Of a stretch of DNA of 64,000 bases, positions 15,724 through 37,385 are shown piece by piece; the stretch's first letter is position 1, and each line of letters begins with the position of its first letter. The DNA is from Octopus vulgaris. Taxonomy: Eukaryota. The translations under genes were made by a program, and so were the position numbers. The stretch lies in NCBI GenBank assembly GCA_951406725.2, contig OX597825.1:35712001-35776000 (forward strand). The letters run 5' to 3'. The notes beneath the pieces were generated by a model. The model made no database searches and was not told the origin of the DNA. It was given only the letters and a program-made list of their open reading frames with translations.

Positions 15724-15756
15724 TGTCGACCAGTTTCGCTTTCGCTAATCATGACA
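15724..15756 (-). ncRNA. Minimal type-I hammerhead motif, A3-U8 core variant
   Basis: Minus strand TGTC-ATGATTA-GC-GAAA-GC-GAAA-CTGG-TC-GACA: helix I TGTC/GACA, helix II GC/GC with GAAA tetraloop, GUC site. Confidence 0.7.
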
Positions 15757-15995
15757 TCAAAATTTATCTAAATACATATTTTTTTAGCAATTTTTTTGTC
15801 CATGTTGTGTGTGGAGTTTATGAATGAATAATTCAACAAGTAGAAAAATATATGGGAAGGTAATTGGTTATCGTTATTATTAGAGACAGGGGAGAGAATT
15901 GTTCATCTCTTGGTGGAGGGTAAGAAATATATATATACATACAACATGGACAAGAGAATTTTTCTTAGGAAAATACGTATTTAAATAAATTTTGA

Positions 15996-16028
15996 TATCA
16001 TGATTAGCGAAAGCGAAAGCGGTCGACA
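15996..16028 (+). ncRNA. Minimal type-I hammerhead motif, A3-U8 core variant (inverted copy)
   Basis: TATC-ATGATTA-GC-GAAA-GC-GAAA-GCGG-TC-GACA; the two copies imply an ancestral CCGG helix-III palindrome. Confidence 0.62.
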
Positions 16029-16151
16029 ATCACAATATAAGATATATTAAAAATTATATTAAAACTATGTAAAGTGTGTGCATTTTCCTTCTTTAATTTC
16101 TTTATATATTACAACTCGCCACGCGGGGACAATCGAAATTCTTCCCTTTCT

Positions 16152-16217
<66 letters not shown>

Positions 16218-16670
16218 GATAAATTTCCGCTGAATTCCAGTCTTCTAAATCTTCTAGATTAATTCACAAGTCGTTGACCCAAGACTACAAGTAGAAGTAA
16301 TCTGCCCAAAATGTTGCCCAGTAGAACTGAACCCGAAACCACGTGGTTGCAAAGAGAACTTAACCTTGCCCTGTATATCCTCTATATTAAACGAAAAGTC
16401 CTCATGGTGTTGTCTCTACCAACGAGACTGCTTGGATTTTTTATGTATCCCGGTCAGTTGATGACCCTTTGACCTTGTATGAATTTCTTTTTACAAGTAG
16501 CTACATGAATATGCTTGTAGACGACTCATTTGCAATATACAAATATACAAAAACAAAAAGAAAACAAGCAAATTGGGTTTTGAGATTAGTATGCAGCCAC
16601 TGGGCCACTCTGCTCAACGAGCAATAATCAAATATGTAATTTCTTATATTGTCCGTTCTGGGTTACATTT

Positions 16671-16860
16671 TTATTACGTTGTCCATCATACGGTATTTAT
16701 TCAATTATTTATTTATATGCACTGGACTGTGCAAAATCACAAAATGTATGAATGTATCCGCCCTTTATGCTAAGGTAAGAGTAATTTGCGTATTATTTAT
16801 AATACAACTTAATATTGTCAGCTGGTTTATATGCTTTATGTTTAATAATTGGTTGATGCT

Positions 16861-16959
<99 letters not shown>

Positions 16960-17207
16960 TGTATGTATGTATGTATGTATGTATGTATGTATGTATGCAT
17001 GTATAGCAATAGTATGACAACAAAAGAATGAATGAGACCTCGATATATAACCAAAGGAAGACACTTAAGGTGGTCGCTAGATCTTGTAAAAATTCTAGAT
17101 TATTACGTTGTCCATCATACGGTATTTATTTAATTATTTATTCATATGTACTTGACTGTGCAAAATTACAAAATGTATAAATGTACCCGCCCTTTATGCT
17201 AAGGTAA
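16671..17207 (+). repeat. About 108-bp direct repeat pair
   Basis: 16671-16778 and 17100-17207 (ttattacgttgtccatcatacgg...ccctttatgctaaggtaa). Confidence 0.9.
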
Positions 17208-18659
17208 TGAACATTGTAAATAAGTACCGAAGGTGATAGTATTGATCATGTACCAGACAAAAGGGTTTAAATCCGGATTTCCTAAATTGGGCGATATCGT
17301 CCCCACCGGCGAGCGATTTCAACTGTTGGATGAGTGATGAGTAACTGAATAGAAAATCGTGGGTGACCGGAAATTTTGGTGAGCGATATAGGATTTTGAG
17401 CTAACCCACAAAAATATGCCCAAGAAATATGTACATAATTCGTATGAAAAAAAAAACAGAAGGCTAAATGGGAATAACTGGACCAAATTCTTTGATAAGA
17501 TATATCTTCGCAAACAAGGAACATTTGATATCTTCTATTACTTTGAGGACGGTCATCGGATTTATTCAGTTGCTCTCACAGATTTCGTATTTTTTTCAAT
17601 TTTGTTCCAATTGTTCCCAAATTTGATTATACCGGTTTAGTTTTGTATGCCAATTATGAAAATGAAATTCAATTTTACTGTAAATAAATAAAAAGTTAAT
17701 AGCTTTTAATGTTTGCAAATTTTGGATGATTTTAGCCAATCGAAAACCACATTTATACACATAGCCGTAAATCTCATATTTGTGTGTTTTCATAATAACA
17801 AGCGAATCTGTAGTCTACTCAGTTTTCATTGTAACAAGAACACAGTACGAGTGCGACTCTGACACTTTCTCCACCGAAACCACCACCACAAGTTATGACG
17901 AGCGATATCATTTCGTGCCTGTTACTATTTTTGTCTGTCATTTTGTGAGAGACAGCTATCACGTAGAAAATGCCAGATTCCGATTCCTGTTTTCTGAATG
18001 AACTAAAAATGATCAAACTTTGAATTTCTGTCAGATTTTTCTGAATGTTTCTGAAAATAAATGAATCCCGAATTCAGGTTCAGCATGAAAAATTACATCA
18101 GTATGACAAATTTGAAAATTTTCATTTAATTTTAAAATTTTCAAATTTATGGCATCAGCCGAAAAAGGTCTAGATCATTAACGTTCAAATAGCTCTTCGA
18201 ACAAAATACCATTTGTTTGGGGTTTTTTTTGGTGGGGGTGGTCTTTTTATTTCGGATATAAATCAGACAGTGAAGACCATGAACAACTTTATCTCCAACG
18301 CCGCCAGCACCGAGAGGTCACACATAAAATTGACACAGGCATTGGTCTCTAAGAACTCTGCTGACAGACTGTAGATAAGGAGGCGCGGACGATAATGTCA
18401 GATAAAATTTGAGAATCCAAAGATGGAACTTGCTTGCAGCGCAATGCGCATGCTCATATAAACAAACAGCCACTTAAAGATGTTAGATTGCATTGAGCGC
18501 CAAGTGACTGCAACACTCTTGCGTTCTTGTATTTGTGGATTATTGAAAACAGGCTTCGAGTAACAATATAACTTGGTGAACAAAAATATTATCTGTTGTT
18601 CCGACTATTTTCTCTGCGTATTGTACAATTTTGAAACACCTCAATGCCTTCATTTAAGA

Positions 18660-18960
18660 AAATTTGCCGTCAGTTCTGCACTGATTATTTATCTTATAGT
18701 TTAACGTTTCCCCTCAGAGCAGTCACTTACCTCTGTGTCTCATGCGTAACCAAACTTAAATCAACGAAGCCATGAAACCTTCACGGTTCCAGTATCAGTT
18801 ATATTCTAAGCATGCTGACCAGAAAGAAAAACCTTTGTCATATTTCTTACAACTTAATACCTCATTTGAACAGCGGAAACCGTTGATCTCCGATATTCAG
18901 AAAACGACTGCGCAACAAGACAACTGGATGATTGCGACGTACAACATTGCTTCACTGGTC
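18660..18960 (+). pseudogene. hAT (Buster/Charlie-like) transposase N-terminal remnant
   Basis: NEAMKPSRF..QL..KH...KEKPLSYF...ATYNIASLV matches the N-terminal region of Buster/ZBED5-type transposases. Confidence 0.7.
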
Positions 18961-19411
18961 GAACCAGTAATAAACTTTTACCAAAACATTTCTGGTATGC
19001 TTTTGCATATTTGATTTACTGATGAGTGGAGGAAAGTCTTTCAACATGTAGTGGGCGACGATGTAAAAAACGTAGGCTGCCCCTTGTTTATAGTACCATA
19101 GAGTGCGGTCGCCGCCGCCATCGTCGTCGTCTACTTCAGTATAATATAACTAAAGGAAAGTAAACTATAAGTCAAATATAAATCCCAAACGGAAATTACA
19201 AAAATACACCCATCAAGTCAATATATTGCTTAATTATATGCATGTGTGTGAGTATTTATGCATGTATGCATATGTGTGTGTGTATATGCATGTGTGCACA
19301 CACACACACACACATATTTGTTTATATACATACATACAACTATCTATCTATATACATAGATATGTATATATATATATATATATAGATAATGTATGTAAGT
19401 ATGTATGCATG

Positions 19412-19445
<34 letters not shown>

Positions 19446-19622
19446 TGTATGTACGTACGTACGTACGTATGTATGTATGTATGTATGTATGTATGTATGT
19501 ATGTATGTATGTATGTATGTACGTACGTACGTACGTATATATGTATGTATGTATGTATGTATGTAAGTATGTATGTATGTATGTATGTATGTGTAATATG
19601 CGTTATTATTATGGAAGAAATT

Positions 19623-19842
19623 AAGGCGACGAACTGGCAGAATCGTTAGCACACCAGGCAAAACGCTTAGCGGCATTTCATCCGTCTTCACCTTCTGAGT
19701 TCAAATTCTGCCGTGGTCGAATTCGTCTTTCATCTTTTCGAAGTCGATAAAATAAGTACCAGCTGATTGATCACTGGGGTCGATGTAATCGACTTGCCGT
19801 CTCCCTCAAAAGTACTGGCCTTGTGCCAAAATTTGAAACCAT
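19623..19842 (+). mobile_element. SINE family A
   Basis: aaggcgacgaactggcagaatcgttagcac...ctttcatcttttcgaagtcgataaaataagtaccag. Other copies at about 30305, 33507, 44125(-), 50780(-), 63370(-). Confidence 0.8.
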
Positions 19843-20128
19843 TCTGATAGAAGGAATTATGCTTCAGCATTTACATACAAAGAATAGTCATCGTATAAAA
19901 TCTTTTAATGTTATAAAAATCACAATGGCGTTGCATGGGTTCGAGTGACCCTATGGGAAGCCGAATTCGACGACAGCAAACGCACGAACATATAGTGGCC
20001 GTCATGTGTGATCCACACACTCCGCGCGTTCCAATGTATGCCACTGACACTTTGTATATCATTGAGATAAAAGAAAATCACTTGCATCTTTTCTCTGTCA
20101 TTTTCCAACAGATATATGCAATATGTTG

Positions 20129-20508
20129 TGGAGGCGCAATGGCCCAGTGGTTAGGGCAGCGGACTGGCGGTCATAGGATCGCGGTTTCGATTCCTAGACC
20201 TGGCGTTGTGTGTGTTTATTGAGCGAAAATACCTAAAGCTCCACGAGGCTCTTGTAGGGGATGGTGGCGAACCCTGCTGTATTCTTTCACCACAACTTTC
20301 TCTCACTCTTACTTCCTGTTTCTGTTGTGTTTGTAATTCAAAGGGCCAGCCTTGTCACACTCTGCGTCACGCTGAATATCCCCGAGAACTACGTTAACAG
20401 TACACGTGTCTGTGGAGTGCTCAGCCACTTGCACGTTAATTTCACGAACAGGCCGTTCCGTTGATCGGATCAACTGGAACCGTCGTCGTCGTAAGCGACG
20501 GAGTGCCA
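20129..20508 (+). mobile_element. tRNA-derived SINE (family C)
   Basis: tRNA-like head ggaggcgcaatggcccagtggttagggcagcgg...ggtttcgattcc followed by gtgtgtttattgagcgaaa.acctaaagctccacg; related copy at 28121-28420. Confidence 0.8.
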
Positions 20509-21092
20509 ATATGCAATATGTAATTAAAATTACTGCTGACATCTCTCTCTTTTTTTTCTTTTTGTCTTTTTAGAATTTTTACAATGCGCATTTAGTCAAC
20601 AAGTCACTATCCCTTGAAACGCTAACGCTCGTTGCTGATCCATAAAACTTTCTATAAATTTTCGTTGCGGTTTCACCGTTAAAGGCGCTAATTACTTGTC
20701 ACTATGCTTCTCATATGTAGACCATACTCCTGAATGAATCACCGAACCAGTTTCACTCTCTCATTCAACGATGGGAATCAGATTGTTTCTGTCACGTCGC
20801 TGCACATAAAAATGCCACCGGGCGATGCCGATTGAGACGACAAAACCCAAGGCTCATTAATTCTTAGTAGGTGACTATCATATGCTGGATTTTATATTAA
20901 CAGAGGGAATAGCATTTTGGTTGCAGATAAAAGCAAATATAAGCCTACGTACAGAGCAAACCGTTCTCTTATCAAAGCTTTATTTATGTAGGTTTATGTT
21001 TAACGAAACATACTATTTCATTTGAAACCAGCGTACCTCTAACCTTTATCCTTTTTTACAATAAAATTATTATCATTATTATTATTATTATT

Positions 21093-21163
<71 letters not shown>

Positions 21164-21303
21164 TGTTGTTGTTGTTGTTATGGTTATTATTATTATTATT
21201 ATTTTTCAGTAGTCTTATTTTCTTTATGTATTTTCACTGCACTAGCGAGTGCAGCTCTGTGCACCTTGGTTACATGCTGTGGTTTGTTTTGGTATTGCTA
21301 CTT

Positions 21304-21975
21304 TCATTGTATTGAAAATGCTTTACGTATGATGTGTGCGATTCCTAGTAGTGCTATTATTTGTATGTTACATATATTCGTAAGTGCTGGTATATTGGTT
21401 ATGTATTTGTTCGTATGTTTTTCAATCATACCCAAAGCACCTATTATCAAAGGGATTGTTTCTGCTTTCAGAATCCACGTTCGGGTTATCTCTTTTTCCA
21501 TATCTTTGTATTTCGAAAGATTCTCCGTTTCTTTTAGAGTTAGTGTCATCTCTTGGAACTAATATGTTGATTAGAAGGCATTTTTGCTTGATAGTCTCTA
21601 ACAACTATATCTGATCTTTTAGCTTTGATCTCTTTATTTTTGTGTATTGGCATATCTCTGAGTATAGTTGCTTTATCGTTTTCTGAGTTCTTTTCTGGGA
21701 TATGCCTATGCCATCTTTTTACAGTTGTCTTCTCATAACGCTGGCATAGCTTCCAGTGTATATAGGTCCCTACTGTGTCATGTCTGTGAACATATTCCTT
21801 TTTATTCTAAACTGGGCAGCCAGGATCAATCTAATTTATTGTTTCTTCTCCTATCGAAACAGTTACCTATTGCATTTTTCTTCATTGTGTGTTTTTGGTG
21901 TTTTCTGGATGAGATGCTTTGATCTTGTTCCACAATTAAAAGCCTTTCAGTCTCTGCTTTGAGTCCCGAGTTTCT
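21304..21975 (-). pseudogene. 3' fragment of an R4/Dong-like non-LTR retrotransposon (REL endonuclease)
   Basis: DIVVRD..KCLLINILVPRD..KETENLSKYKDMEKEITRTW...IPLIIGALG...IQIIALLGIAHIIRKAF is the PD-(D/E)xK REL C-terminus; the 3' end abuts a (TAA)n/(CAA)n/(CAG)n tract at about 21067-21202. Confidence 0.85.
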
Positions 21976-22066
21976 CAACTATTGTTGGGATTATAATTTG
22001 TCAGGACAATGGTGACATACAAGGAAACCGAACGAAAACAAACATGGAGGGTCGATAGACCAGACG

Positions 22067-22191
22067 AGACATAAAAACACACACACATACATATACATAC
22101 ACGCGCGCTCACACACTTGTATGTATGTATATATATATATATGTGTGTGTGTGTATATATATATATATATGTATGTATGTGGCGTTGAATC

Positions 22192-22229
<38 letters not shown>

Positions 22230-22427
22230 GAAATTCGGGGTGAGTACTTGATAATTATAAGCACCTGTGTAACCCTGTGTAACCCATGTAACACATGTCC
22301 TTGTGGAAGCTGTTGTGCGCGGCTGAAGAAGGCCACAGACATACATTATGCATTGTTATAAATCTGTCTAATAAAGGCCCGAAACATATGTACCGCTAAA
22401 TCCTTGGCATTATGTTTTTATTTTGAT

Positions 22428-22476
<49 letters not shown>

Positions 22477-22487
22477 GCGTTCAATCA

Positions 22488-22536
<49 letters not shown>

Positions 22537-23178
22537 TATATACATACATATATGAACATACATATATATGTATATAGATATGTATATATGGGTACAGTGA
22601 ACGCTGGAGAAATATTGTCTTTGACGAGAAAAGATAAAAGAGGAGATATCTTTTCTCTAATTCTTTTTCTCCCCTTCACCGTTTTCTCTCTGTTTGCCTC
22701 TCTTTCTCCCCTCTACCTCCTTTACTCTCTCTCTCTCTCTTGTGGCTCAAACGTGACCATCGTCGATCTTTCTTTTTCTTCAGTGCTGTCGTACAGACTA
22801 CACGTATTCCTATCTATCTCCTCTTCTATCTTTTCTCTTGTTAAAGACAATATTTCTCTAACGTTCACTACTTTACCTCATCTGGTGTATCGACCCTCCA
22901 TGTTTGTTTTCGTTCGGTTTCCTTGTTTGTTTCCACTATCCTCTTTTTATTACCAAATTTGACCCTCTGCAAATCCCCAAATAAGGCGTAGAAGGGTAGC
23001 AGACAACTGATGAAGGGTCATTTTTATGTTACTTGTCTTATTTTCCATTTGTTTCTCTCGTTGTTTACATACCCAACTTCATTTTCGTATTTCATGTTGT
23101 TAACGTTTTGTGACGTCCTGTAGCCATATATACATATCTATATACATATATATGTATGTTCATATATGTATGTATATA

Positions 23179-23232
<54 letters not shown>

Positions 23233-23254
23233 ATTGAACGCCACATACATACAT

Positions 23255-23302
<48 letters not shown>

Positions 23303-23376
23303 GCATATATATATACATACATACAAGTGTGTGAGCGCGCGTGTATGTATATGTATGTGTGTGTGTTTTTATGTCT
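22067..23376. repeat. Nested inverted duplication around a pLTR-like element
   Basis: 22067-22597 (excluding the HHR insert) is the reverse complement of 23118-23376; inner IR 22596-22648 / 22815-22869; about 22019-22068 is an inverted copy of about 22878-22926; CTGATGAAGG half-motif at 23006. Confidence 0.8.
22319..22396 (+). ncRNA. Type-I hammerhead ribozyme motif in a TA-flanked insert (22229-22433)
   Basis: GCGG-CTGAAGA-AGGCC-ACAGA...TCTGT...GGCCC-GAAA-CATATG-TA-CCGC: helix I GCGG/CCGC, helix II GGCC/GGCC, palindromic helix III, GUA site after 22392. Confidence 0.78.
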
Positions 23377-23579
23377 ATGTTTGTTCCCCACCGCAGCTTG
23401 GACACCGATACTAGCGTGTTTGCGTCCCCGTAACTTAGCGTTGGTTCGGTAATAGTGATCGATAGAATAAGCACTAGGATTTTAAAAAAATAAGTACTGA
23501 GGTCGATTTATTCCATTAAACCCTTTAAGGCGATGCTCCAACATGGCCTCAGTCCAATGACTGAAACAAATTAAAGATA

Positions 23580-24215
23580 TACAACTACTTACCAAAAAAT
23601 CGGAATGCTACATTGACATACCGAAATGGTTTCTCATAGCACGAGCAAGCATAGGAGCCAAGACGTAAGCACTATTTTGCTAGGGAAATACAGGCCCATA
23701 AACTACCTTATCATTGTACACAAACTGAAGCACAAGTACCTTGAACCAATTCCTCCAAATCCACAGCGAGCCATTAGAGACTGTTGTCAAATCCTGGATC
23801 GAAAGAGATGCCCGGGAGAAGGCCGTACGTGTTCCAGCAAGACTGTTCCCTCCCACGAGCAGATGGCCGAAAATTTTTGTGATCGTGTTAATTCTACCTT
23901 TCCTGATTTAAACCCCCGGACTACCCTGTATGGGGCGTCGTTGAGAGGGAGACCAACAAGCATACCCACAATGTCAAGGACTCATTGATGTTTGCTGTTG
24001 GAGACGTTATGACCAACATGAATAAAGATCACCTGATCAACGTATTTAGTCGTTTCAGAAGTCCTATCGAGGCAGTAATCGAGGTTGGTGGCGATTATAT
24101 TAAACTGTCTTTTACTATTTGTATATAAGAATACGTATAACAAGTTCTCTAAATATATACAGAATTGACTTTTCTAATAAACATTCTTGTTTTCCTTAAA
24201 TTAAAATTTTATCCT
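23580..24215 (+). mobile_element. Internally deleted Tc1/mariner-superfamily remnant (DD37D/maT-like)
   Basis: FPDLNP..YPVWGVVERETNKH and AVIEVGGDYI across broken frames. Confidence 0.65.
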
Positions 24216-24249
24216 CAAATAGCTAACGCGCCAAGTACACACAAACACA

Positions 24250-24300
<51 letters not shown>

Positions 24301-24488
24301 CAATATTTCTGAATTACTACTATTTAGCGGTGGTTTGAGTCTTGGCTGCTCTTTCTAGTGGGTCGAATGGCCTATCGGGGTCGTTCCTTAATATTGTTGA
24401 ATTTATATATATATAGACCGCTGGTGGCGAAAAAATTTCTATTGAATTTTTTGCTACCCTTATATTGATTAATATATATATATATATG

Positions 24489-24520
<32 letters not shown>

Positions 24521-25152
24521 TGTATGTATGTATGTATGTATGTATGTATGTATGTATGTATGTATGTATGTATGTATGTATATGCATGTATATGTATATA
24601 GACAAGAATAAATATTTGTGTGTGTGAGTTTGTATGTTTGAATGTATACACATGTATATACTTTGAACAAAACTAAATATAACAACTACGCTCCCTTATC
24701 TAGTAAAGGTGACGCCCTTTCCCGTATCGCGTCCATAGATTTGTCTTTTAACTTTCAGTTCCCATCTATCATCTGACTACGAATAACTAAACAGTTCACA
24801 CCCTAAATACCATCCACCTGTACCTAAGCAAGCACGAGGTGAAACACGCAACCTCACTAAACTACAGAAGCATTCTATTTGGTGCTTCGGTGTGCTAGAA
24901 ATAGTAGCCTAATTCAATTTGATACCACTTAAATTTGTGTTAAAAGACAGCAAGGACACATCAGGCAATGATGGACAGATCACGGTCGTAATGCCTTTGA
25001 ACACAGGTCTGGTGGAACGATCACGGCCGTAAATCCTTTGAAAACAGGTCTGTCTGGTCAGATCTGACCTAGGGTTAAAGAACAAGAATCTTACATTTCC
25101 GCCTTGACGAGAAAATATTTTTAAAAATTCACACGTTACTCTACAAGTACAA

Positions 25153-25197
<45 letters not shown>

Positions 25198-25425
25198 GGT
25201 GGTGGTAGTGGTGGTGGTGGTGGTGGTGGTGGTGGTGGTGGTGGTGGTGGTGGTGGTGGTGGTGGTGTGTGTGTGTGTGTGTGTGTTTGTGTGTGTGCGT
25301 GTGTGCGTTCTCTGCGTGTGTATACATGTATATGAATAAATAGTATAGGCACAAGCAATGATACATATTCAAACCCATTCTCGCGCACGCGCACACACTC
25401 ACTCACACGCACAAACCTATATATA

Positions 25426-26640
25426 CAGGGTGTGACCAAAACGTGTATAAACAGATTGAATGATTATAAAGTAAATAATGTTTATTAACATACATTTTAT
25501 TCTCAATATTTTTTAGAATTCACGTGCAGAATTGAATATTTTCATGAGCACCTATTTTCGAAACGATGACCTTTCTGGACCAGACGCTGCTTAAAACTTG
25601 TAACAAGAAACATCAAGAAATATCTCGTTTGTTATTTGTGTGCATTCATGTTCAATAGTAGTTCTCATTTCGTCGGTTTTGTAAGGTAGACTTTATCGTT
25701 TAAATATCTCTGTAAAAAAAACGTCTAATGGTGTGAGGTCCGTTGAATGCAGAGGGTATTTGAGTGAGACTCTTTGTCCAATCCACCTGTCTGTCAAAAT
25801 TTAATGATTGTAGGCCCTTACCTTAGTATGGTAGTGTGGCAGTCCAATCTTGCTGACAGTATAACTCCACATCTTCTAAGTGTTCTCTTTAATGGTTGGT
25901 ACGACAAATTGTCTCAGCAAGTACCATAAAAAAAGAATGGCACATTTAATCTTTTTGATGAGCAGCACTATACTGTACCTCCTGGTTATCTAACATGATG
26001 TTCCTCCATAATATGTGGATTCTGACGTCCCGAATGGGTGCAATTGTGACGGTCAAATCAGCCATTTAATTTTAATGTAGCCTCATCACTCCAAATAATT
26101 TCTATTGGAAAGCGTGCATATTCTACACATCTTGCCATGTACCACTCACAAAAATTAACTCCTCGGTTCGGAAAGTCTTCATTGAGGTTATGGACTCTTT
26201 CCAATGGCAGTGCTTCAAAATGCAATAGACTCTTGACATTGAAATTCCTATATTATGTCTCACTTACCACACAGATCTTCTTGAATTATGCTAATACGTT
26301 TCTAGTATCCTTTCTTTCTTTGCAAGGCTCGTCCAAAGCCGCCGTCTTCCAAAACGTTTCCTGTAGACATTCTGAACCATTCCATTGGTTTCAAATTTAT
26401 TTCTAATCCGAGTGGTAGTAAGTCGCAATAGTGGATCCGTTTGAAATTCCCTCTTAAACTCTCTTTGCGCTTTGACAGTGTTTTCAAACTTCTAGTAGTA
26501 CTTTAGTATGAATTTCCTTTGTACAAGGTTTGGTCTAACTCCATTCATTATCTCTAATGAGTTAAATGCAAAAAGAAATTAAATTTAAATGAGTTCTCAG
26601 GTGTTAAAGTATATAACATTTTGGGGAGTTATCCCGCATA
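25426..26640 (-). mobile_element. Degenerate Tc1/mariner-superfamily element (DD41D/rosa-like)
   Basis: ta-cagggtg terminus at 25426; minus strand DLTPLDVF..YLNDKVY and KGHRFE C-terminal motifs. Confidence 0.6.
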
Positions 26641-26644
26641 TGTA

Positions 26645-26685
<41 letters not shown>

Positions 26686-26688
<3 letters not shown>

Positions 26689-27126
26689 AAGTGTGTATAA
26701 TTATGAACAAATCACAGTTATATCGGAGAGGGTTTCAGAAACCCTAACATGTCTAGAAATAGCAGTCAAAACCTCTATAAAGCCACTATAACCACTCATT
26801 TTTTATCTGTTCACAATAGAGCAGTCGGCGGGCGACATGACATAAGATTCAAAACTTTACATTTGTATCTACAGGAATGCTCTCCTGAAGAGAAGAGCGG
26901 AACCGTTTTTGGTTCCTAACTTCGAAACTGCAATAAAGAATTAACCTTTTGTTCAAGTTTTGAATTTTATGTCATGTCGCCCGCCGACTGCTTTATTGTG
27001 AAGAGATAAAATATGAGTGGTTATAGTGGCATTATAGAGGTTTTGACTGCTATTTCTAGACATGTTAGGGTTTCTGAAACTCTCTCTGTTATAATTGTAA
27101 TTTGTTCATAATTATACACACTTCCT
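26686..27126. repeat. About 170-bp inverted repeat enclosing a hammerhead motif
   Basis: Arms 26686-26857 and 26955-27126; spacer CTGAAGA-GAAG..GGAACC-gttttt-GGTTCC..CTTC-GAAA-CTGCAA-TA (26885-26935); abuts (TA)n. Confidence 0.85.
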
Positions 27127-27528
27127 TTATGAAATGTTTGATTGTATGTTTTGGCCATTGATATAATCGTAAATAATTATGAATTGTTAATGATATATCC
27201 TTCGTAATGTATTTTTACATCCCGCTTATGTATGTATGTATGTATGTATGTATGTATGTATGTATGTATGTATGTATGTATGTATGTATGTATGTATGTA
27301 TGTATGTATGTATGTATGTATGTATGTATGTATGTGTGAGTGTGTGTGTGTATGTATGTATGTATGCATACATGCATGTATGTATGTATGTATGTATGTA
27401 TGTGTGTGTATGTGTGTACGTATTCACAGACACACGTGCATATACATCCATCCATCTATCCATACATACATACATACATCCATACATACATACATACATA
27501 CATACATACATACATACATGCATACATA

Positions 27529-27559
<31 letters not shown>

Positions 27560-27562
27560 CAT

Positions 27563-27608
<46 letters not shown>

Positions 27609-28120
27609 TCCTTCGCACACACACATATAAGTTTTAAATTTTCACAGAGAACCTGTCTGAAACACGGAATGTAACACTCGATACTTGCAAAATACAAAAT
27701 GAAAAATAAGAAATTACAATACGAAGTAAGACAAAGCAAAATAAACAGTTATAGGCGCATGACACTTCCTTGTACAAACTAGCGAAGGATCCACCTGAAA
27801 GAAAGAACATACATGTCAATAGCTCCTCATCAAACGAAATGGTCAGATACAGCAAAATACTTCTACGAAGGAACAAAGCTACAGATCTTTTTGTACTGAC
27901 TCCCGTAGAAGGCTGACCGAAGTCTTGATAAACAAAGGTATACATCGTTCCTCGTTTAATACGGGAGTTAGATCATAAAAAAAGAAAATCAGTGATAACT
28001 GAATCATCATGGTCTTCATAAATGGAACGAATGGGAGATTCATTGACCTCGGATTCATGGGCCACAGCAGTGACGCTTCCACAGTTACGTATTTCTGTTT
28101 CACAACCACCGGAACGCGTT

Positions 28121-28420
28121 GAGGCACATGGACTAGTGGTGAGAGCAGCGGCTTCGTGGTCGAGGGATTGCGGGTTCGAATCTCAGACCGGGCGATGTGT
28201 GTGTTTATGAGCGAAACACTTAAGCTCCACGCGGCTCTGGCAGAAGGTAATGGCGATCTTCTGCTGACTCTTTCACCACAACTTTCTCTCACTCTTCCCT
28301 CCTGCATCTTGCGGCTCACCTGGAACGGACCGGTGTCCCGTCCAGGTGGGGAACCTATACGCCAAAAAAACGGGAAACCGGCCCTTATGAGCCAGGCATA
28401 GCTCGAGAAGGAACAAACAA
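28121..28420 (+). mobile_element. tRNA-derived SINE (family C variant)
   Basis: gaggcacatggactagtggtgagagcagcgg...gggttcgaatctc head; shares ctttcaccacaactttctctcactctt with the 20129 copy. Confidence 0.8.
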
Positions 28421-29714
28421 CAATAAACCATCGGAATGCGAAGCGCTCCTCGTGAACACATGTTCGTGAATGGTTGAGATCTATAAACAGTTTTGAGTAG
28501 GAACCGGAAAAAGAATGCACATGCATTGCACATGCGCACGCTGAGTTCGTAAAACGGAAGCGAAGAATAAAAACGCAAAGCCAAAATATAACAGAAGAGA
28601 GAAATAAAACAAGTTATATGATGGTTTGCATGTCACATCTGATACCACTATTACGCAGCTTTGCTTCAATTTTCTTATTGATCATCTCTACCTTTTATTT
28701 GAAAAAAATAGACTCGTCTGCGTCGTATTTTTTTGTCCACTTGTAGATGATTCGAATTCGTAAATGCATATAAAAAATATGCAGTCTAGCCGCAAGATCA
28801 TGTAAATACAAGCGATAGTCAGTATATTCTGGATAACTGAGCATTATGGGTTGTCACTTGGGCACCGTTTTTGCGGTACAAGCAGAATCGCTGACTGATC
28901 GCCGACCAACAGATCAATCCATGATGAACGTAACATGGTTCACAATTGAGCATACCATGTTGTTACATAACAATAGTGGATGAATCAGAGATGAACAGGG
29001 CTATATTGCACCAACACACATCTCTATACTACACAGGGTGTACAAGCATCCTCGACAATCACTCAGATTTTATTAAACATCCAAACTGGAAAACATCATG
29101 TATACAGCCACTGGCTGCATGACAAGGGTGTAAAATTGTAGAAATAAACGTATGTGATCTTAGATCAAACATGAGTGAAATTATTACCACTTACAGCAGG
29201 AGTTTCCGGTTTGGTATACTTAAGGGGTGAAAGGTGGCATTTCTCTGGGTGCGACAAACAGTGATAACATTTCAGTGGGTACGGCAAAGACTTTATTAAA
29301 ATCGCTTTTCAGAATAAAATTACTAAATTATTCATAAAAATAGTTTTGTGATAATGAACAAGAACTTTATTATTCCACAGTACTGTGTGTCGTTCGAGTT
29401 AATTTGTTTTTCTTTTTTTTTTGTTATTTTTTATATATATATCTTTTTTACTTTTTTATATATTTGTTTTTATATCTTTTGTGCTTTTTTATATACTCGT
29501 TTCCGGCATTAGACTGCGGCCATGTTGGGGAAACCACTTTAAAGACTTTTTAATTGAATGAATCGACCCCAGTACATTTTTCTTTCTTTAAAGCCTGATA
29601 CTTATTCAATCGGTCTCTTTTGCCGAACCGATAATTTATGAGAACATAAACACACCAACACCGGTTTCTAACGCTGATAGGAGACAAACACAGACACAAT
29701 GACACAGCCCTCTG

Positions 29715-29800
29715 TATCTGTCTTGGCGTTCACATCTCTTGCAAACTGACCGTACAATTTTTCCTTCCATGCTTCTTTTATTTTTGATTTTTTCTTGTTG
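29715..29800 (-). pseudogene. Small R4/Dong-like retrotransposon fragment
   Basis: KIKEAWKEKLYGQFARDV matches the W..K.LHGQF.R motif; adjacent to a (CAA)n tract. Confidence 0.5.
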
Positions 29801-29847
29801 TTGTTGTTGTTTTTGTTGTTGTTGCTGCTGCTGCTGTTGTTGTTTTG

Positions 29848-30250
29848 ACGGCAAGCTAGCAGAATCGTTAGCACGCTGGACGAAATGATTAGCGGTTTTC
29901 GTCTGCCGTTACGTTGTGAGTTCAGATTCCGCTGAGGTTGACTTTGCCTTTCATCCCTTCGGGGCCGATAAATCAAGTACCAGTTACGCACTGGGGTCGA
30001 TATAATCGACTTAATCCGTTTGTCTGTCCTTGTTTGTCCCCTCTGTGTGTAGCCCCTTGTGGACAGTAAAAAAATAGGTATTTCGCCCGTCGCTACGCTC
30101 CGAATTCAAATTCCGCTGAGGTCGTCTTTGCCTTTCATACTTAATTCATCGATGAATTAAGTACCAGTTGCGTACTGGAGTCGATGTGATCGACTTTCTC
30201 CCCCCCACACACACACACAGAATCCAGGCTTTGCGCTTATAGTAAAAGAG
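29848..30250 (+). mobile_element. SINE family A, dimeric form
   Basis: Same duplicated core and linker (cgtttgtctgtccttgtttgtcccctctgtgt..agcccctt) as 3635-4030 and 33975-34375. Confidence 0.85.
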
Positions 30251-30271
30251 ATTATTATTATTATTATTATG

Positions 30272-30306
<35 letters not shown>

Positions 30307-30741
30307 GGCAGCGATCTGACAGAATACTTAACACTCCAGACAAAATACTTAACGACATTTTTCCGGCTTTACATTCTGTTCAAATTCCGGCGGGGTTAGC
30401 TTTCCCTTTCACCCTTTCAAAGTCAATAAAATAAGTACCAGTTGAGCACTGGGGTCGATGTAATCGATTAGTTCCTTCCCCCAAAATTCCAGGCCTTGTG
30501 CCTATCGTGAAAAAATAATTATTTTTGCTGCTGCTGCTGCTGTTGTTGTTGTTGTTGTTGTTGTTGTTGATTATAACGCCTTCGAAGACAGAATCGTTAG
30601 GGTTTAACTGTTTTCCCCTTTCTTCACTACAATCTAATGTGTAACTTTTGGCCTATAGTAGGTATCAGGCACTGACTATTATATGGTTTTGAAAGCAGTG
30701 AATGACGGAATTCATACAGCCTCGGGTCAAATAACTTATGA

Positions 30742-31339
30742 CAGGGGTCCCTCACGACCAGCAGTGGTTCATTTGGTTTCGAGCCTCTCGGAAAGAATGT
30801 TTGCTTTACTTGCTTCATGCTCTTGTTTAGTGTGGTTGGGGGTCATCTCAGGTTAGTGGTTATCATGCGCAGAGCCGACCAGGTCCACCAGTGTCCTTCA
30901 TTGCTGGCAGTCTCGTGCCAGCCCCTCCGCATCTTCCAAGGTAACGTCGAGCGTCTGAAGAGCTTCCACAATCACATTCAGCTATCTCGTGCGGGGCCGG
31001 CCACGAGGCTTGCTCCAGCCCGCGGCTGTTGCATCGAATGAGAGTAGGATGATCTAGGGTGCAAAAATGAAAAAACACTCTCCAGACTGCAATGGACAAT
31101 AAAAGAGAAATAAAATATTTTAAATCTTATTTTTATTTCATTGACCATTGCAGCCTGCAGGGTCTTTTTTTTTTTCCATCATATGTATTATGTGTGTTAT
31201 ATATATGTATTTTATATGTAATAATTATATCACGTTATGTTGTTTACTGTGTTTTGTTATGCGCGTGATACCACGGTCCGCAGAAAAGTTATCTTGTATG
31301 AAACTGGTTCATAATGCAAATAAGGTCGGGTACCAGTGG
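30742..31339 (+). mobile_element. hAT/Charlie-type MITE interrupted by an RTE fragment
   Basis: 5' caggggtccc; 3' cggtccgcagaaaagttatcttgtatgaaactggttc...aaggtcgggtaccagtg resembles Charlie/MER1-type ends. Confidence 0.55.
30862..31050 (-). pseudogene. RTE-clade LINE 3' end fragment
   Basis: Minus strand WSKPRGRPRTR*LNVIVEALQTLDVTLEDAEGLARDCQQ*RTLV matches the RTE C-terminal RPRGRP..RW...A.DR..WR motif. Confidence 0.7.
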
Positions 31340-31722
31340 CTTTACAGTATTTAGGGTCTTCTCTTGTAAGAAATAATTATTAATACTACCTTCCTTTGTT
31401 TCTTTTTCTTGCTGGCAACACCTCTGCAATACCAGTTGAGTGTCTCAAGTCTAAAGGAGTGGACAGGCATTTTTTGGTTTATTTTTCTAATGCACCTAGT
31501 TTCGTTTCGTTTTATTTAATTCGTTTTCATCTGCTTTTGCTTTTATTTTGTGTTGTTTTATTTTTCCTTTTGAAAACGAAAACAACCTGATGATGGTTTG
31601 TGAAGGAAATATGACACGTTATTACGCAGTAGAGTCTTTCCTGGGGCCCTTTTGTGTTGAACTTTTGTCAACACTTCCCAGTCATATGACAAAGAAAGAA
31701 CTGAAAAATTCGAGCAAATAAG

Positions 31723-31759
<37 letters not shown>

Positions 31760-31871
31760 AGCTCTCCTTCTCTCTCCTATATGTATATGAGTGTATGTTT
31801 GTGTGTATGTAATATATATGTATGTTTATTTACATACATATATATACATATATCTATACACACATGTATAC

Positions 31872-31948
<77 letters not shown>

Positions 31949-31951
<3 letters not shown>

Positions 31952-33153
31952 TGTACGGACGGTGTTTGAGGACAGATTTATGGTTTTAAAAAATGCTTAT
32001 ATGATTACAGAAAAAAGCTTAATTTTTATAAAAATAACATAAAGTTAAATTATCAGTTTAATAATTCCATTCAATAAAACCATCATAAGCATCAATAAAT
32101 GACTCTTCGCGGAGTCGATATCGTTTACAAGCTCGGATTAAGTGATCCTTATTCATATCGGACATGACTCGAACTATGGCAGCTTTCAAAGAATCTTTGG
32201 TACAATGGGGGGGGGTGTTGACAATTTGCTCATCGATGCTCCATACATAGTAGGCTAATGGATTGGGATCTAGAGAATTAGGAGGTCAAATGCTGGGGGT
32301 GATGTGATCATGCAAATTACCGGCCATCAATTCTTGTATCATTTGAGCATTGTGTGATGGTGCAGAATCTTGTTGAAAGACGTAAGGCTTTCCATTACAT
32401 ACACTGTTGATCCAAGGCTTAACAACTTTATCCAGAACCTCAATATACGCAGCAGCATTCACCATAAGGCCTTGTGGAAAAAACGAGGAGGCATCACATG
32501 TCCTTCATTGCCAACAACACCCAAAACTATGACACTTGCAGGAAATTTTGTGTGCGCTACTCTTGGAACTTCAGAAGTGTCTGCACATAACTATCTGTCA
32601 TTTCTTCTGTTAGTTTTCTGGTCCTGGTCAAGATTTTTCTCATCTGAGAAACCTAAATGAACCATCTTCTGGTGGATTTGTAAGTTTGTTCAAAAGTCTT
32701 TTGGATCTGATTAAACGGTTTTTTTTTTATCTAACATGAATTGACCTCTCCTCGTCATGTAAGATTTGTTTCCGATGTCTCCATGCACAACATTTCTGGT
32801 TGTTTTTTCAGACACGAATTCTTTTGCAATTGGCCTCATTGATTTTCTTGGATTGTTTTCAATGTTTTACTTAACTTCCTGAATAAATTCAGGTGTCCTG
32901 ATAGAATAAGAGCGTTTGGAATGTTTCTTACGTTTTGATAGACGTGCTTCCATTTTGTTTCTCTAACTCAAACTGAATCTTGTGATCTTGCAAATTTCAG
33001 AGAACGAGAAATTTCTAAATCACCATGCTTAAACTTCAAAGCCACAATCACAGCATGACTTTTCATTTCATTAGAAAGAACAGGGCTCGTCATTGATATT
33101 TTCTGAAACAAAATAAAATAATGACTAAAAACACGTGACCTCAAATACCGTCC

Positions 33154-33161
<8 letters not shown>
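31949..33161 (-). mobile_element. Degenerate Tc1/mariner-superfamily transposon (DD37D/maT-like) in a TA tract
   Basis: TIRs cagtgtacggacggtgtttgagg / cctcaaataccgtccgcattctg with TA both sides; minus strand FQQDSAPSH and PPNSLDPNPLAYYVW. Confidence 0.88.
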
Positions 33162-33210
<49 letters not shown>

Positions 33211-33767
33211 ATATAAGCATACTTGTGTGTATGTATGTGAATAATATATTTATTTATTCATAACACACCACTTGCATTAGGAATCTAAGTTTGAAATAAT
33301 TAAACTGCAGCTAAACCTTAATGTGAAACTTCAAACAGATGTAAGTACACCTTATTATTCTCTTGGTCGAGGGAGTTGAGGAATAGGCTAAGTACGGGAA
33401 TGCATAATGCCTTTGCCTTATTTACTTACTTTTACTTGAGTTTTTAGTTTAAATACCACCAAGGATAAGGGTCTATACGCCACCTGTCATTATTACGGGT
33501 TTGGGAAGGCGGTGCATTAGCAGAATCATTTAACACCTCGAGCAAAATACTTAACGGTATTTATTCCGGCTTTACGTTCTGAGTTCAAGTCCCGCCGGGG
33601 TCAACTTTGCTTTTCATCCTTTCCGGAGCACTGGTGTCGTTGTAAACGTCTTCCCACTTCCAAAATATCAAGCCTTGTACCTGTTGTAAAAAGGATTATT
33701 ACATGACTTGTGGGGGAAATAATAGAATAAAGTGAGAACAGAGTTGCGAGGAAGATGAGAGTAATGA

Positions 33768-33814
33768 GAGAGTGAGTAAGTGAGGAAATTCAGGGAAGAG
33801 GGAGAAGGATGAGA

Positions 33815-33862
<48 letters not shown>

Positions 33863-34524
33863 GCCCTACTCAATAAATTCTATGAAAAGAGGATGAATGC
33901 AACGAATATGGTGGTTGTGCATGGCCCTCATTTGTGCATATACAGGCCTTAATAATAATGATAATAATAATAATCCTTTCTTCTATAGAAACAAGGTCTT
34001 AAATCTTGGGGGAGAGGACTAGTCAACTACCTCGACCCCATTGTTTCACTGGTACTTAATTTATACCCCTCCCCACCGGAAAGGATGAAAGACAAAGTCA
34101 ACTTCGGCGGAATTTGAACTCAACATAGCGACGAGTGAAATACCTATTTCTTTACTACCCACAAGGGGCTAAACACAGAGGGGACAAACAAGGACAGACA
34201 AACGGATTAAGCCGATTACATCGACCCCAGTGCGTAACTGGTACTTAATTTATCGACCCCGAAAGGACGAAAGGCAAAGTCGACCTCGGCGGAATTTGAA
34301 CTCTGAACGTAACGGCAGACGAAATACCTTTAAGCATTTCGCCCGGCGGGTTAACGTTTCTGCCCGCTCGCCGCCAGTATGAGGGCCGTTCACAACCACC
34401 ATATCGCTGCATTGATCCCTTTTTCATAAAATTTATTTGGTAGGGCAGCAATCTCTCTCTCTCTCTTACTCCTCTCATCCTTCTCTCTCTTCCCTGACAC
34501 TCATTCACTCATTCGCTCACTCTC
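33768..34524. repeat. Inverted duplication flanking a dimeric family A SINE (33975-34375, -)
   Basis: 33768-33931 is the diverged reverse complement of 34379-34524. Confidence 0.8.
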
Positions 34525-35087
34525 GATAGAATTTTGTTGATATTAGCACCCCGAACGAAATACCGCTAAGCATGTCTTTATGTCCTGAGCTCAAATTCCA
34601 CCAGACACATTGTTTAAGTCATCTAAAGTGCATTAGGACTGAACAAAAAAAAAAATATATATATATATAATAAATAAACGGAAAGGTCTGTTTGTAGTTT
34701 CTGTAATTGTAGGTCAGCTCGACCCAAGTCGAACCGACTTGATACTCAACAACAGCAGCATCAACAACAATAACCAATATCAACTTTCTGAGCAAATACT
34801 GAAAAAGAAATTTAAAAACAAGATGAACGTACGTCGATCTTCCGTAACAAAAAAAAACGTCATCACGATCAATATAGCACTAACTTTCAATCCTTAACTC
34901 TTTTACGACAACTGATCTCAATGAATAAACAATGCTATGTGTGTTCATTTGAGATTGTCTAGCATCTCTCTCTCTCTCTCTCACACTCTCTCTCTCTCTC
35001 TTTCTATCTCTGTCTTCCTTTCTTTCTCTCTCCCTTACTCTCACTATCAATCAGTCAATCTGTCTGTCTGTCTGTATGCATGTATGC

Positions 35088-35118
<31 letters not shown>

Positions 35119-35147
35119 TGTATGTATGTATGTATGTATAATGTATG

Positions 35148-35194
<47 letters not shown>

Positions 35195-35764
35195 ATATAT
35201 ATATATGTGTGTATATATATATATATACACACACACACATATATACACATATGTATTTGTATGTTTGTGTATGTGTGTGTGTGTACATATACATACATTG
35301 GTACATACATAAGCAATACACACATTCTCGCAAACATATATGCACATATATGCACGATGTGTTGGTCTGCTCGAGTGCATTACTAGTCACATGTAACCCA
35401 AAACAACTTATTGCATGATCAGATCGTCACCGACTAAACTGGTGTCTCTCTGGGGATGGCCTTGTAATGAGGGCCGCTAGTAAAACCAACAAGACAAAAA
35501 CCATATCAACCAAAAGGACGGACGGATCAAGTCTAAGGTCACTACATATACATACAAACATACATACATACATACATACATACATACATACATACATACA
35601 TACATACATACATACATACATAATACATACATACATACATACATACATGCATACATACATACATGCAAGCATACATTCATACATGCATGCATGTATCTGT
35701 CGCTAATATATGTGTGTGAATTTATATGTATATGCATGTATTTATGTGTGTATAAATATATATA

Positions 35765-37065
35765 CAGAGTGGGGCAGAGAGGACGGACGTTTTTGAAATG
35801 GCTATTACTCAGTCCCGGGCGAGAGACATATGTTTGGCAGGTACCATTCGGTCCGTGGTGTCTTAGCTTTTGTTTTTTGTTTTTCATTTCAGATTTTCAG
35901 ATTAAGTCATGGCGCTGTGGACAGTTACGTGAAGAATAACGAGTCTGTCACAGCAGTTCAGTGTGAGTTTCGGCACCACTTCAACATTCACTGAAATCAG
36001 GCTATTCCCACCAGTAACACAATCTTACTTTGGGTTAATGTACATCGTACGCGAGACGCACTAATGAATAGGATAACTGGTGGGGGCGCCACGAACGGTA
36101 TAGACCCTGGAAAATATGGAATGCGTCAGACAGGCTTTGGTATGGAATCCGAATCGCTCTGCTCGGAGGCATTTCACTGAATCTGTTATCGGTAATCGAT
36201 TGGTGAGACACATGAGGCATTTCCACCCATACAAATTGGATAACAGTTGAAACCATGGGACTATGCACAGAGGCTTAACTTTGCACGTCAGATGGAAGCA
36301 ATTTTTGAGGCAAATGACGACCTGATTTTGTTAACGAATGGTGAAGCTCATTTTCATCTCAATGCATGGTGAATCAACATAACTGTCGTTATTAAGCTCT
36401 TGAACATTCGAGAGAACTGCACGGACAGCCCAAAAGTGACGGTCTGGTGTGCTGTTGGGAAGCTGCCGTCGTTGGTCCTTACTTTTTTGAAGACAATAAT
36501 GGAAATGCTGTTACTGTGAACTCCGAGCGTTACATCGAGATGATAAACATTTTGTTTCTGCTTGAATTACGACGAAAACGTATGCCTATTCGACGTGTGT
36601 GTGGTTTTAGCAGGGTGGGATGAAGGACCACACAACCAGAGCATCAATGGACTTCTTCGCCCTCTTTTCGGTGACCACCTCATTCCCAGGTTTGCTGACA
36701 ATATTTTCACCCCACCCACGGCCACCTGATTTGTCCATGTGTGATTATTTCTTATGGAAAAACCTCAAAGCACGTGTGTATGCACATAAGCCCCGTACAT
36801 TGGACGATTTGAAGGAAGCTATTTGCGTGGAAGTCTCCAAAATCGACAGAGCAATGCTGGAGAAAATGGATACCAGCTTCCAAGAACGCCTTCAGAAATG
36901 CATCAATGAAAACGGACACCACATGATGGATGTTGTTTTCTACACTTAATTTTGACAAATGCTAATTCAATACGAACACATTGATGTCAATAAAATTTGT
37001 TTCCACCTAAAATTAATGACTTTGTGAAATTTTTCAAAAACGTCCGTCCTCTCTGCTCCACCCTG
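35765..37065 (+). mobile_element. Full-length degenerate Tc1/mariner-superfamily transposon (DD41D/rosa-like)
   Basis: TIRs cagagtggggcagagaggacggacgtttttgaaa / tttcaaaaacgtccgtcctctctgctccaccctg with TA TSD; GEAHFHL, PKVTVWCA, GPYFFE, PRPPDLSMCDYFLWKNLKARVY, ENGHH motifs. Confidence 0.92.
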
Positions 37066-37069
37066 TATG

Positions 37070-37150
<81 letters not shown>

Positions 37151-37349
37151 GAAATATGTTACAAAAAGAAAATAGAAATTACACGTGGTAATGTAAGAGG
37201 AAAGTAAGAAAAATAAACGAAAATGCACATTGTAAATCAAAAAAAGTAAAGGCTTTTTATGAAAAGTAATGATAGATATATACAATCAGATGAACTGAGG
37301 TAGGAATAAAAGTAATAAAAGTCATTATTTTGAATTGTTAAAGAGATTC

Positions 37350-37385
37350 AAGCATACCGGTTTCGTAAGTTACTAATCATTGCTT
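37350..37385 (-). ncRNA. Minimal type-I hammerhead motif, A3-U8 core variant (second family)
   Basis: Minus strand AAGCA-ATGATTA-GTA-ACT-TAC-GAAA-CCGG-TA-TGCTT: 5-bp helix I, 3-bp helix II, CCGG palindrome, GUA site; in an insert (about 37150-37420) flanked by TA tracts. Confidence 0.72.

Follow-up and report, generated by a model that had tools for sequence, protein, structure and literature searches.

In the hammerhead ribozyme, the nucleotide at position 8 contributes its 2'-OH, and a Watson-Crick pair with position 3 keeps it in place, so the identity of the base is free to change as long as the pair is kept. Przybilski and Hammann are said to have found in 2007 that any Watson-Crick pair at 3:8 is tolerated, to a degree depending on the ribozyme. 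The closest described systems are the hammerheads of Penelope-like elements. According to the accessible part of PMC4209133, they cleave poorly in vitro, and Schistosoma has U3-A8 families of the minimal form (min-HHR). In a reconstituted Penelope element (PMC11167929, accessible part), cleavage required protein and insertion went ahead without it; none of the RNA-seq reads had an end at the cut site. There, C3G or G8C alone abolishes cleavage, which is partly restored in the double mutant. In one mutational scan, G3-C8 was the only rescuing swap, and A-U swaps did not rescue (Roberts et al. 2023, PMC9901934, accessible part).

The window analysed here is a stretch of 64,000 nucleotides of the Octopus vulgaris genome (OX597825.1, positions 35,712,001 to 35,776,000). 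It contains three minimal type I hammerheads, two of family F1 and one of family F2, within the following remains of Penelope-like elements.

15259..15465, minus strand: F1 Penelope-like GIY-YIG endonuclease region, an inverted fragment interrupted by stops (tblastn to an intact relative: 55% identity, E 6e-20)
15463..16216, plus strand: 3' UTR (pseudo-LTR) of a 5'-truncated F1 element, by blastn to genomic copies; TA run at its end; split near 15707/15937 by the inverted second 3' fragment
15694..15941, minus strand: second F1 3' fragment, inverted, containing hammerhead copy 1; about 85% identity to the plus-strand copy
15724..15756, minus strand: F1 hammerhead copy 1; A3 at 15752, U8 at 15747; helix I UGUC/GACA; helix II GC-GAAA-GC; stem III CUGG, decayed from the palindrome CCGG of the family; GUC triplet, its cut predicted between 15728 and 15727
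15996..16028, plus strand: F1 hammerhead copy 2; A3 at 16000, U8 at 16005; helix I UAUC/GACA with one A-C mismatch; stem III decayed to GCGG
37140..37424, minus strand: F2 Penelope-like 3' end (pseudo-LTR), 5'-truncated, continuing into a TA microsatellite
37350..37385, minus strand: F2 hammerhead, intact; A3 at 37380, U8 at 37375; helix I AAGCA/UGCUU; helix II GUA/UAC; stem III palindrome (A)CCGG(U); GUA triplet, its cut predicted between 37355 and 37354
37395..37412, minus strand: the F2 hammerhead's 5' half, duplicated upstream (helix I strand and AUGAAUAG), also A3-U8

Positions 3-9 of the core read AUGAUUA at all three sites, as the preliminary description had noted. The window copies contain the core N3-UGA-N-N8-A ... 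GAAA ... UH and three helices in type I order. The canonical C3 and G8 are absent from all three; A3 and U8 stand in their place, and the pairing potential is kept. The scan pattern ATGANTAGN{4,14}CGAAASNNGTH has three matches in the window, which are these sites, and none in 100 shuffles. The helices had been described as largely intact. This is true of the F2 copy, but UGUC/GACA is found in F1 copy 1 only, and stem III has decayed in both F1 copies. F1 copy 2 is probably inactive. All three window copies are truncated relics, and the two F1 copies are probably dead. Because the F1 copies lie on opposite strands, a single transcript of the locus cannot carry both in the same sense. The region 15259-16216 shows 5'-truncated copies with inverted segments and a hammerhead in the pseudo-LTR. 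In other F2 copies, the 3' end is linked to GIY-YIG fragments. The upstream duplicate of the 5' half is a feature of the F2 family, found in 23 of 30 F2 hammerhead copies scored. A direct-repeat search of the window was swamped by microsatellites.

A3-U8 is the family state. It is found in 34 of 35 F1 alignments covering both positions, the remaining one being C3-U8, and in 30 of 33 F2 alignments, the others being one A3-G8, one G3-U8 and one deletion. These copies were fetched by DNA similarity with the core not fixed in the query, from 58 loci that are the best-scoring matches of both family searches, the window's own loci excluded. On this point the preliminary description is borne out: A3-U8 in these families is not a product of sporadic decay. 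At the unfixed positions of F1 and F2 genomic copies, G5, A6, G12, A13, A14, U16.1 and non-G17 are the majority state, and stem III is ACCGGU in both families, although it is disrupted in the two F1 copies of the window. Identity of F1 copies to the window is about 83-89%. F3 is a third A3-U8 family, with 315 copies and an extra U after G12; when searched with positions 3 and 8 free, 98 of the 100 matches listed are A3-U8. Helix II of the A3-U8 families has just 2-3 bp. The near-identical open frames for which a hammerhead could be traced are from a U3-A8 family. Opposite-strand motif pairs are seen at 7 of the 58 loci and same-strand neighbours at one. F1 and F2 are dispersed copies tied to coding frames and do not fit non-LTR retrozymes, which are non-coding tandem repeats of 200-400 bp with a hammerhead in each. 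Another family, C3-G8 and with tandem units of 359-360 bp, does fit this form. The F2 family is also present in contigs of four runs (organisms D, E, F and G), with no difference at positions 3 and 8 among the 40 of 65 matches listed, in which cover at these positions is low. Four runs presumed to be RNA have contigs that cover parts of F2 and that cannot show ends.

One hammerhead scaffold has 7125 matches in the genome and 16 in the control. U3-A8 is seen in 5235 of them, A3-U8 in 1204 (control: 1), G3-C8 in 109 and C3-G8 in 107. All four Watson-Crick forms together account for 6655 matches (93.4%), a count of sequence complementarity only. U3-G8 and U3-U8 make up 253 matches; among the first 100 listed, U·G accounts for 92, most of them from two recurring subfamilies. 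The remaining 217 are scattered over ten combinations, and those listed are single mutants of large families. A mismatched subfamily may exist, because the searches by which the 21 subfamily representatives were chosen were pair-specific and five non-pairing combinations, with 104 matches, lie outside the listings. Copy counts reflect family expansions, not independent events. The sequence of helix I varies between subfamilies, and at least three contiguous pairs are present in 16 of the 21 representatives by a strict count. C17, which would trap G3, is absent from all 100 G3-C8 matches listed; an unpublished remark in PMC3884650 can be compared with this. Since C3-G8 is found in just 107 of 7125 scaffold motifs, CUGANGA searches would miss most hammerheads of this form here. 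The preliminary description had anticipated that this descriptor would overlook the window motifs, and "cuganga" strings were used by Craig 2021.

Rfam models listed no hammerhead among the top 150 matches in the window, which are dominated by microsatellite matches (227 weaker ones lie beyond), and had no match at the gathering threshold at five loci including a C3-G8 control. As the control locus also lacks a match, these models miss this minimal form.

The two families had been called unrelated, which does not hold. A Penelope GIY-YIG/RT frame of one and the same kind lies upstream of both motifs, and F2 and F1 copies carry homologous frame fragments upstream of the motif. The host proteins of F1 and F2 are 51-58% identical and fall inside one clade with 100/100 support; just the 3' UTRs fail to align. 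In longer copies, the motif is 170-360 nt downstream of the GIY-YIG frame on the same strand. The copy L201, of the A3-U8 subfamily F1b, has an open frame of 635 aa with RT followed by GIY-YIG (RVT_1: E 1e-6, 28.9 bits, slightly below the 29.6 cut-off; GIY-YIG: E 2e-6). The C-x4-C-x2-C linker in the frames of L201 and L222 fits CX2-5CxxC before GIY-YIG, which by definition marks the Neptune (or Nematis) clade (PMC8557442). Based on this linker and the TA-microsatellite flanks, the host elements could be considered Neptune-like.

Stem III is a short palindrome, and two copies of the motif are predicted to pair into a double hammerhead. For F2, the minimum of the prediction is this dimer, at -11.7 kcal/mol; the monomer, in which stem III is open, comes to -1.0. 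Of four motifs, F2 is the one whose minimum is the dimer; the F1, F1b and G1 dimers are 1.0-2.5 kcal/mol above the minimum. Our main reading, to which we give a probability of roughly 70%, is that the motifs of these two related Penelope-like families, with A3-U8 as the family state, self-cleave as dimers and that A3-U8 replaces C3-G8. The pair-preserving change at 3:8 likely reflects selection for the cutting fold. Selection would act on a few transposing master elements; subfamilies would then keep a pair (A-U, U-A, G-C, C-G or U·G) while single inserted copies decay. Cleavage would require tandem copies on the same strand, and perhaps the element's protein too.

It is conceivable, if unlikely, that the 3:8-paired fold has been retained for a role with little or no catalysis, for example as a binding site of the RT-endonuclease or as a dimerisation signal, and that A3-U8 preserves the shape while cutting poorly. 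Mutants unable to cleave still allowed insertion in vitro (PMC11167929, accessible part), and the failure of A-U swaps in the scan cited above (PMC9901934, accessible part) points the same way, as do the extra U tolerated after G12 in F3 and the helix II of just 2-3 bp in the A3-U8 families. However, the 3:8 pair belongs to the active conformation, and shape alone would not obviously need all of G5, A6, G12, A13, A14, U16.1 and non-G17, the majority state.

The preliminary description saw a pair-preserving change recurring in two families as a sign of selection. The pattern proves much wider, but the independence of the two gains does not follow. In the rooted protein tree, U3-A8 is at the root and two purine/pyrimidine inversions are needed. 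Two gains of A3-U8 and one gain followed by one reversal in family Y are equally short, and the deciding branch has support of 60/35. The protein tree points to at least two inversions (2 changes; p=0.012 by AU test), a p value that is optimistic because the tested group was chosen with the first tree already in view and L232 was included before the state of its family was known. The trees omit L049 and L180 (long branches, low identity), L037 (an endonuclease fragment from a neighbouring V-family insertion), rows with <90 aligned residues and other short rows. Within F2, F3 and G, an A-U clade is not rejected (p=0.37, DNA tree with F3 and outgroups). F2 may have come from G3-C8, as one DNA tree hints; a second tree with F3 and outgroups gave this no support. 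A third origin of A3-U8 within a U3-A8 family was dropped, A3-U8 being seen in 1 of 13 non-U3 copies and therefore sporadic.

A single origin of A3-U8 by drift in an AT-rich element, with spread by successful masters, sharing through common descent and ribozymes that are now relics, would agree with the equally short history of one gain and one reversal in family Y (branch 60/35), with the ambiguous order of A-U and G-C within F2, F3 and G (p=0.37) and with the seemingly greater age of the A3-U8 families compared with the U3-A8 ones (about 83-89% identity of F1 copies to the window, and near-identical open frames in a U3-A8 family), but it is improbable, as it accounts for the sharing and not for the pairing: the U-A reversal, the A-U/G-C switch, the related retrozyme-like families with C-G and with U-A and the subfamilies with U·G are all pairs, and drift without selection would leave mostly mismatched subfamilies.

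Beyond self-cleavage of the two families as dimers, it can be speculated that one Penelope-like radiation inverted the catalytic 3:8 pair repeatedly, with active ribozymes on all four Watson-Crick pairs and U·G, and that no large natural families with purine3-pyrimidine8 precede these, one of which has an additional U following G12. The preference for C3-G8 might have been relaxed by dimer formation or by the element's protein. This proposal is tentative, and we hold it to be somewhat less probable than even.

In contigs that are probably host DNA in metagenome bins, related frames have a hammerhead candidate at 3 of 47 loci, and all three are C3-G8 and distant (27-30% protein identity). The closest related frames in those contigs gave no hammerhead candidate, and most contigs stop near the end of the frame. 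Viral contigs contain no related protein. Matches to an A3-U8 pattern in 41 of 64 metagenome parts were put down to chance: both helices are present in 4 of 119 scored matches, and they form no family.

No report of a natural A3-U8 or G3-C8 hammerhead (purine3-pyrimidine8) was found in the accessible literature; Lünse 2017, figures and supplements may hold such variants. Nothing on purine3-pyrimidine8 is in the accessible parts of PMC6155905, PMC7229834, PMC10085705, PMC13725137, PMC7461866, PMC12192606 and bioRxiv 2026.07.22.740005.

In both chemistry and biological role, the motifs belong to a known class. With the min-HHR of Cervera and de la Pena 2014 (PMC4209133, accessible part), the octopus motifs share the type I order, short helix I, G10.1-C11.1 and a palindromic mini stem III. 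They also share the pseudo-LTR place downstream of an RT-GIY-YIG frame, the many truncated single copies and the opposite-strand pairs 100-700 bp apart. Helix II is shorter in the octopus motifs (2-4 bp), and there is no extra nucleotide after A9. As far as Fig. S3 of that paper is accessible (56 rows by its legend), all are C3-G8 except two U3-A8 and one U3-G8, with no purine3-pyrimidine8. The Penelope hammerheads of Lünse, Weinberg and Breaker 2017, as presented in the accessible part of PMC6765202, are also type I with a very short palindromic stem III and cleave as dimers. Perreault et al. 2011 (PMC3088659, accessible part) report natural U3-A8 covariation and a U inserted in the GAAA strand (U13a), similar to the case here; the statement of the preliminary description that natural U3-A8 variants are in print is borne out by this paper and PMC4209133. 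The pairs in that accessible part are pyrimidine3-purine8 only, and the insertion in F3, after G12, precedes U13a by one position. Roberts et al. 2023 (PMC9901934) and Frangieh et al. 2024 (PMC11167929), in their accessible parts, found that G3-C8 restores some activity. Those engineered 3:8 swaps are laboratory mutants, whereas the octopus swaps have become fixed in families that occur naturally and number hundreds to thousands of copies. The octopus elements bear on whether Penelope hammerheads are selected for cleavage, which was dispensable for insertion in vitro. They form a natural series of every 3:8 pairing on closely related elements, in which the effects of the pair can be measured on matched backgrounds.

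Three hammerhead motifs in the window carry the core AUGAUUA, with an A3-U8 pair at core positions 3 and 8 in place of the canonical C3-G8. They belong to two families, F1 and F2, located in the 3' ends of Penelope-like elements.

15259-15465: inverted endonuclease fragment of the F1 insertion
15724-15756, minus strand: F1 copy 1, minimal type I hammerhead, core AUGAUUA
15996-16028, plus strand: F1 copy 2, minimal type I hammerhead, core AUGAUUA
to 16216, plus strand: 3' UTR of the F1 insertion, enclosing an inverted second 3' end
37350-37385, minus strand: F2 copy, minimal type I hammerhead, core AUGAUUA
37395-37412, minus strand: partial duplicate (5' half) of the F2 hammerhead, directly upstream of it

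Other elements in the window are as follows.

~2205-2250, minus strand: hammerhead-like motif of another family, U3-A8, CATG stem III, at 2242
~3210-3245, minus strand: hammerhead-like motif of another family, C3-G8 plus one additional A, at 3240
8996-9511, plus strand: Tc1/mariner-type transposase fragment, matching HTH_Tnp_Tc3_2
54245-55023, minus strand: Tc1/mariner-type transposase fragment, assigned by eye from the translation

The window is AT-rich, microsatellite-dense animal sequence from a genome of 2.8 Gb. The core reported at these sites in the preliminary description holds; a scaffold pattern matches exactly these three sites in the window, and none in 100 shuffles. The F2 hammerhead is intact. 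The two F1 copies lie on opposite strands, both have lost the CCGG palindrome, and helix I of copy 2 contains a mismatch. Penelope-like elements typically leave inverted truncated copies (Craig et al.). The upstream half-hammerhead is present in 23 of the 30 F2 copies scored, and could be a competitor for helix I.

A3-U8 is a real family-level variant of the core. DNA searches that left the core free returned 1528 (F1) and 2000 (F2) dispersed candidates, and 40 of each were scored. Among 58 fetched loci, excluding those of the window, A3-U8 is seen in 34 of 35 F1 and 30 of 33 F2 alignments spanning both positions. CUGANGA is thus not the consensus of these families.

In longer copies, a GIY-YIG endonuclease frame, itself preceded by reverse transcriptase, lies on the same strand as the F1 and F2 motifs and ~170-360 nt upstream of them. 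One A3-U8 copy of subfamily F1b (L201) retains 635 open codons matching RVT_1 and GIY-YIG, with a C-x4-C-x2-C linker, a type given for Neptune and Nematis by Craig et al. The two families had been considered unrelated but are related: their proteins are 51-58% identical, although an attempted alignment of their 3' UTRs yielded none. Among the named protein relatives, 44-46% identical, are two bivalves and bins from symbionts of bivalves. Penelope-like RT frames also occur at 47 loci in records labelled bacterial metagenome bins (L399-L445), which are probably host DNA.

The genome was scanned for exact matches to N3-TGA-N-N8-AG-N(4-14)-CGAAACCGGT-H. Because this scaffold demands CCGG and admits no additional base after A9, hammerheads of other forms, some with C3-G8, are undercounted; its counts represent family expansions, not independent events. 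There are 7125 matches, against 16 in the control. Watson-Crick 3:8 combinations make up 93.4%: U3-A8 (5235), A3-U8 (1204), G3-C8 (109) and C3-G8 (107). U3-G8 and U3-U8 together account for 253, and 92 of the 100 listed are U·G, mostly from two recurring subfamilies. By subtraction, 113 matches carry G3-U8 or combine purine 3 with A8 or G8; those listed are single mutants of large families. The remaining 104, outside the matches listed, are other combinations.

The G3-C8 matches (L146-L165) form several subfamilies related to F2. F3, a third A3-U8 family, is missed by the scaffold, since it has an additional U between G12 and A13 and its stem III is longer, in many copies the palindrome CCAUGG (L369-L398; L232, L239, L248). 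With positions 3 and 8 left free, F3 has 315 matches, and 98 of the 100 listed are A3-U8. Tandem units of 359-360 bp with a C3-G8 hammerhead (L091-L115; L135, L142) are retrozyme-like and sometimes inverted, and their relatives carry U3-A8. One insertion (L065/L123/L166, ~1400-1650) contains a U3-A8 copy and an A3-U8 copy as an inverted pair; the latter is the only A3-U8 among 13 non-U3 copies of its family group.

Protein trees were built from individual copies with eight outside proteins as outgroup. All sampled coding families form one clade (100/100), and the U3-A8 family V branches first (99/98). Three lineages follow as a polytomy: U (U3-A8); a clade uniting F2 and F3 with the G3-C8 families (100/100); and a clade uniting F1 with Y, another U3-A8 family (95/98). 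Y is young and Penelope-like, with many near-identical open frames of ~750 codons and the hammerhead ~630 nt downstream (L220-L228, L229-L231). Grouping all purine3-pyrimidine8 rows, a group defined after the first tree, was rejected (AU test, two models, p=0.012). The early branching of V and this rejection indicate that the ancestral state was most likely U3-A8 and that the pair was most likely inverted twice, either by two gains of A3-U8 or by a single gain followed by reversal in Y; the branch deciding between these has support of 60/35. Within F2, F3 and G3-C8, the change could have run from A-U to G-C or the reverse. This history would be blurred if families had exchanged 3' ends; adjacent insertions from different families are seen in L063 and L037.

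It can be supposed that transposing masters needed a paired 3:8, any pair being sufficient. The active conformation contains the 3:8 pair (PMC3884650). Catalysis uses G12 as general base and, as general acid, the 2'-OH of nucleotide 8 (PMC12192606). Transitions could pass via U·G or G·U. The two U3·G8 subfamilies (L244 and others) are close to U3-A8 families; their existence fits this route, and they are possible intermediates. Inversions would require a mismatch step, and no mismatched-pair subfamily was seen among the scaffold matches listed. C17 occurs in none of the 100 G3-C8 matches listed, as expected if G3-C17 pairing traps the site, and shared descent from an A17 ancestor explains this as well.

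Judged from sequence, A3-U8 motifs are likely to self-cleave, although the two F1 copies in the window are probably inactive. Minimal Penelope hammerheads are thought to act as dimers, with slow cleavage. The double hammerhead is the predicted minimum-energy dimer for F2 (-11.7 kcal/mol), and lies 1.0-2.5 kcal/mol above the predicted minimum for F1, F1b and a G3-C8 motif (G1). Evidence against cleavage comes from a complete double-mutant scan of a type III hammerhead, where only G3-C8 gave rescue, and from a single reconstituted Penelope element, where hammerhead activity depended on protein and insertion did not require cleavage. Same-strand hammerhead pairs were seen at 1 of 58 loci.

Both the ribozyme and the element type are already known. 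No natural purine3-pyrimidine8 family was found in the published literature; Lünse 2017, Przybilski 2007, figures and several supplements lay outside the coverage. The extra U of F3 differs from the U insertion of Perreault 2011, which is one position later. U3-A8 has been known in nature since 2011, and from Penelope elements since 2014. The 2014 Penelope alignment has U3-G8 in one row, and A3-U8 and G3-C8 are absent from it. What these families add is the full natural series of 3:8 pairs within one radiation.
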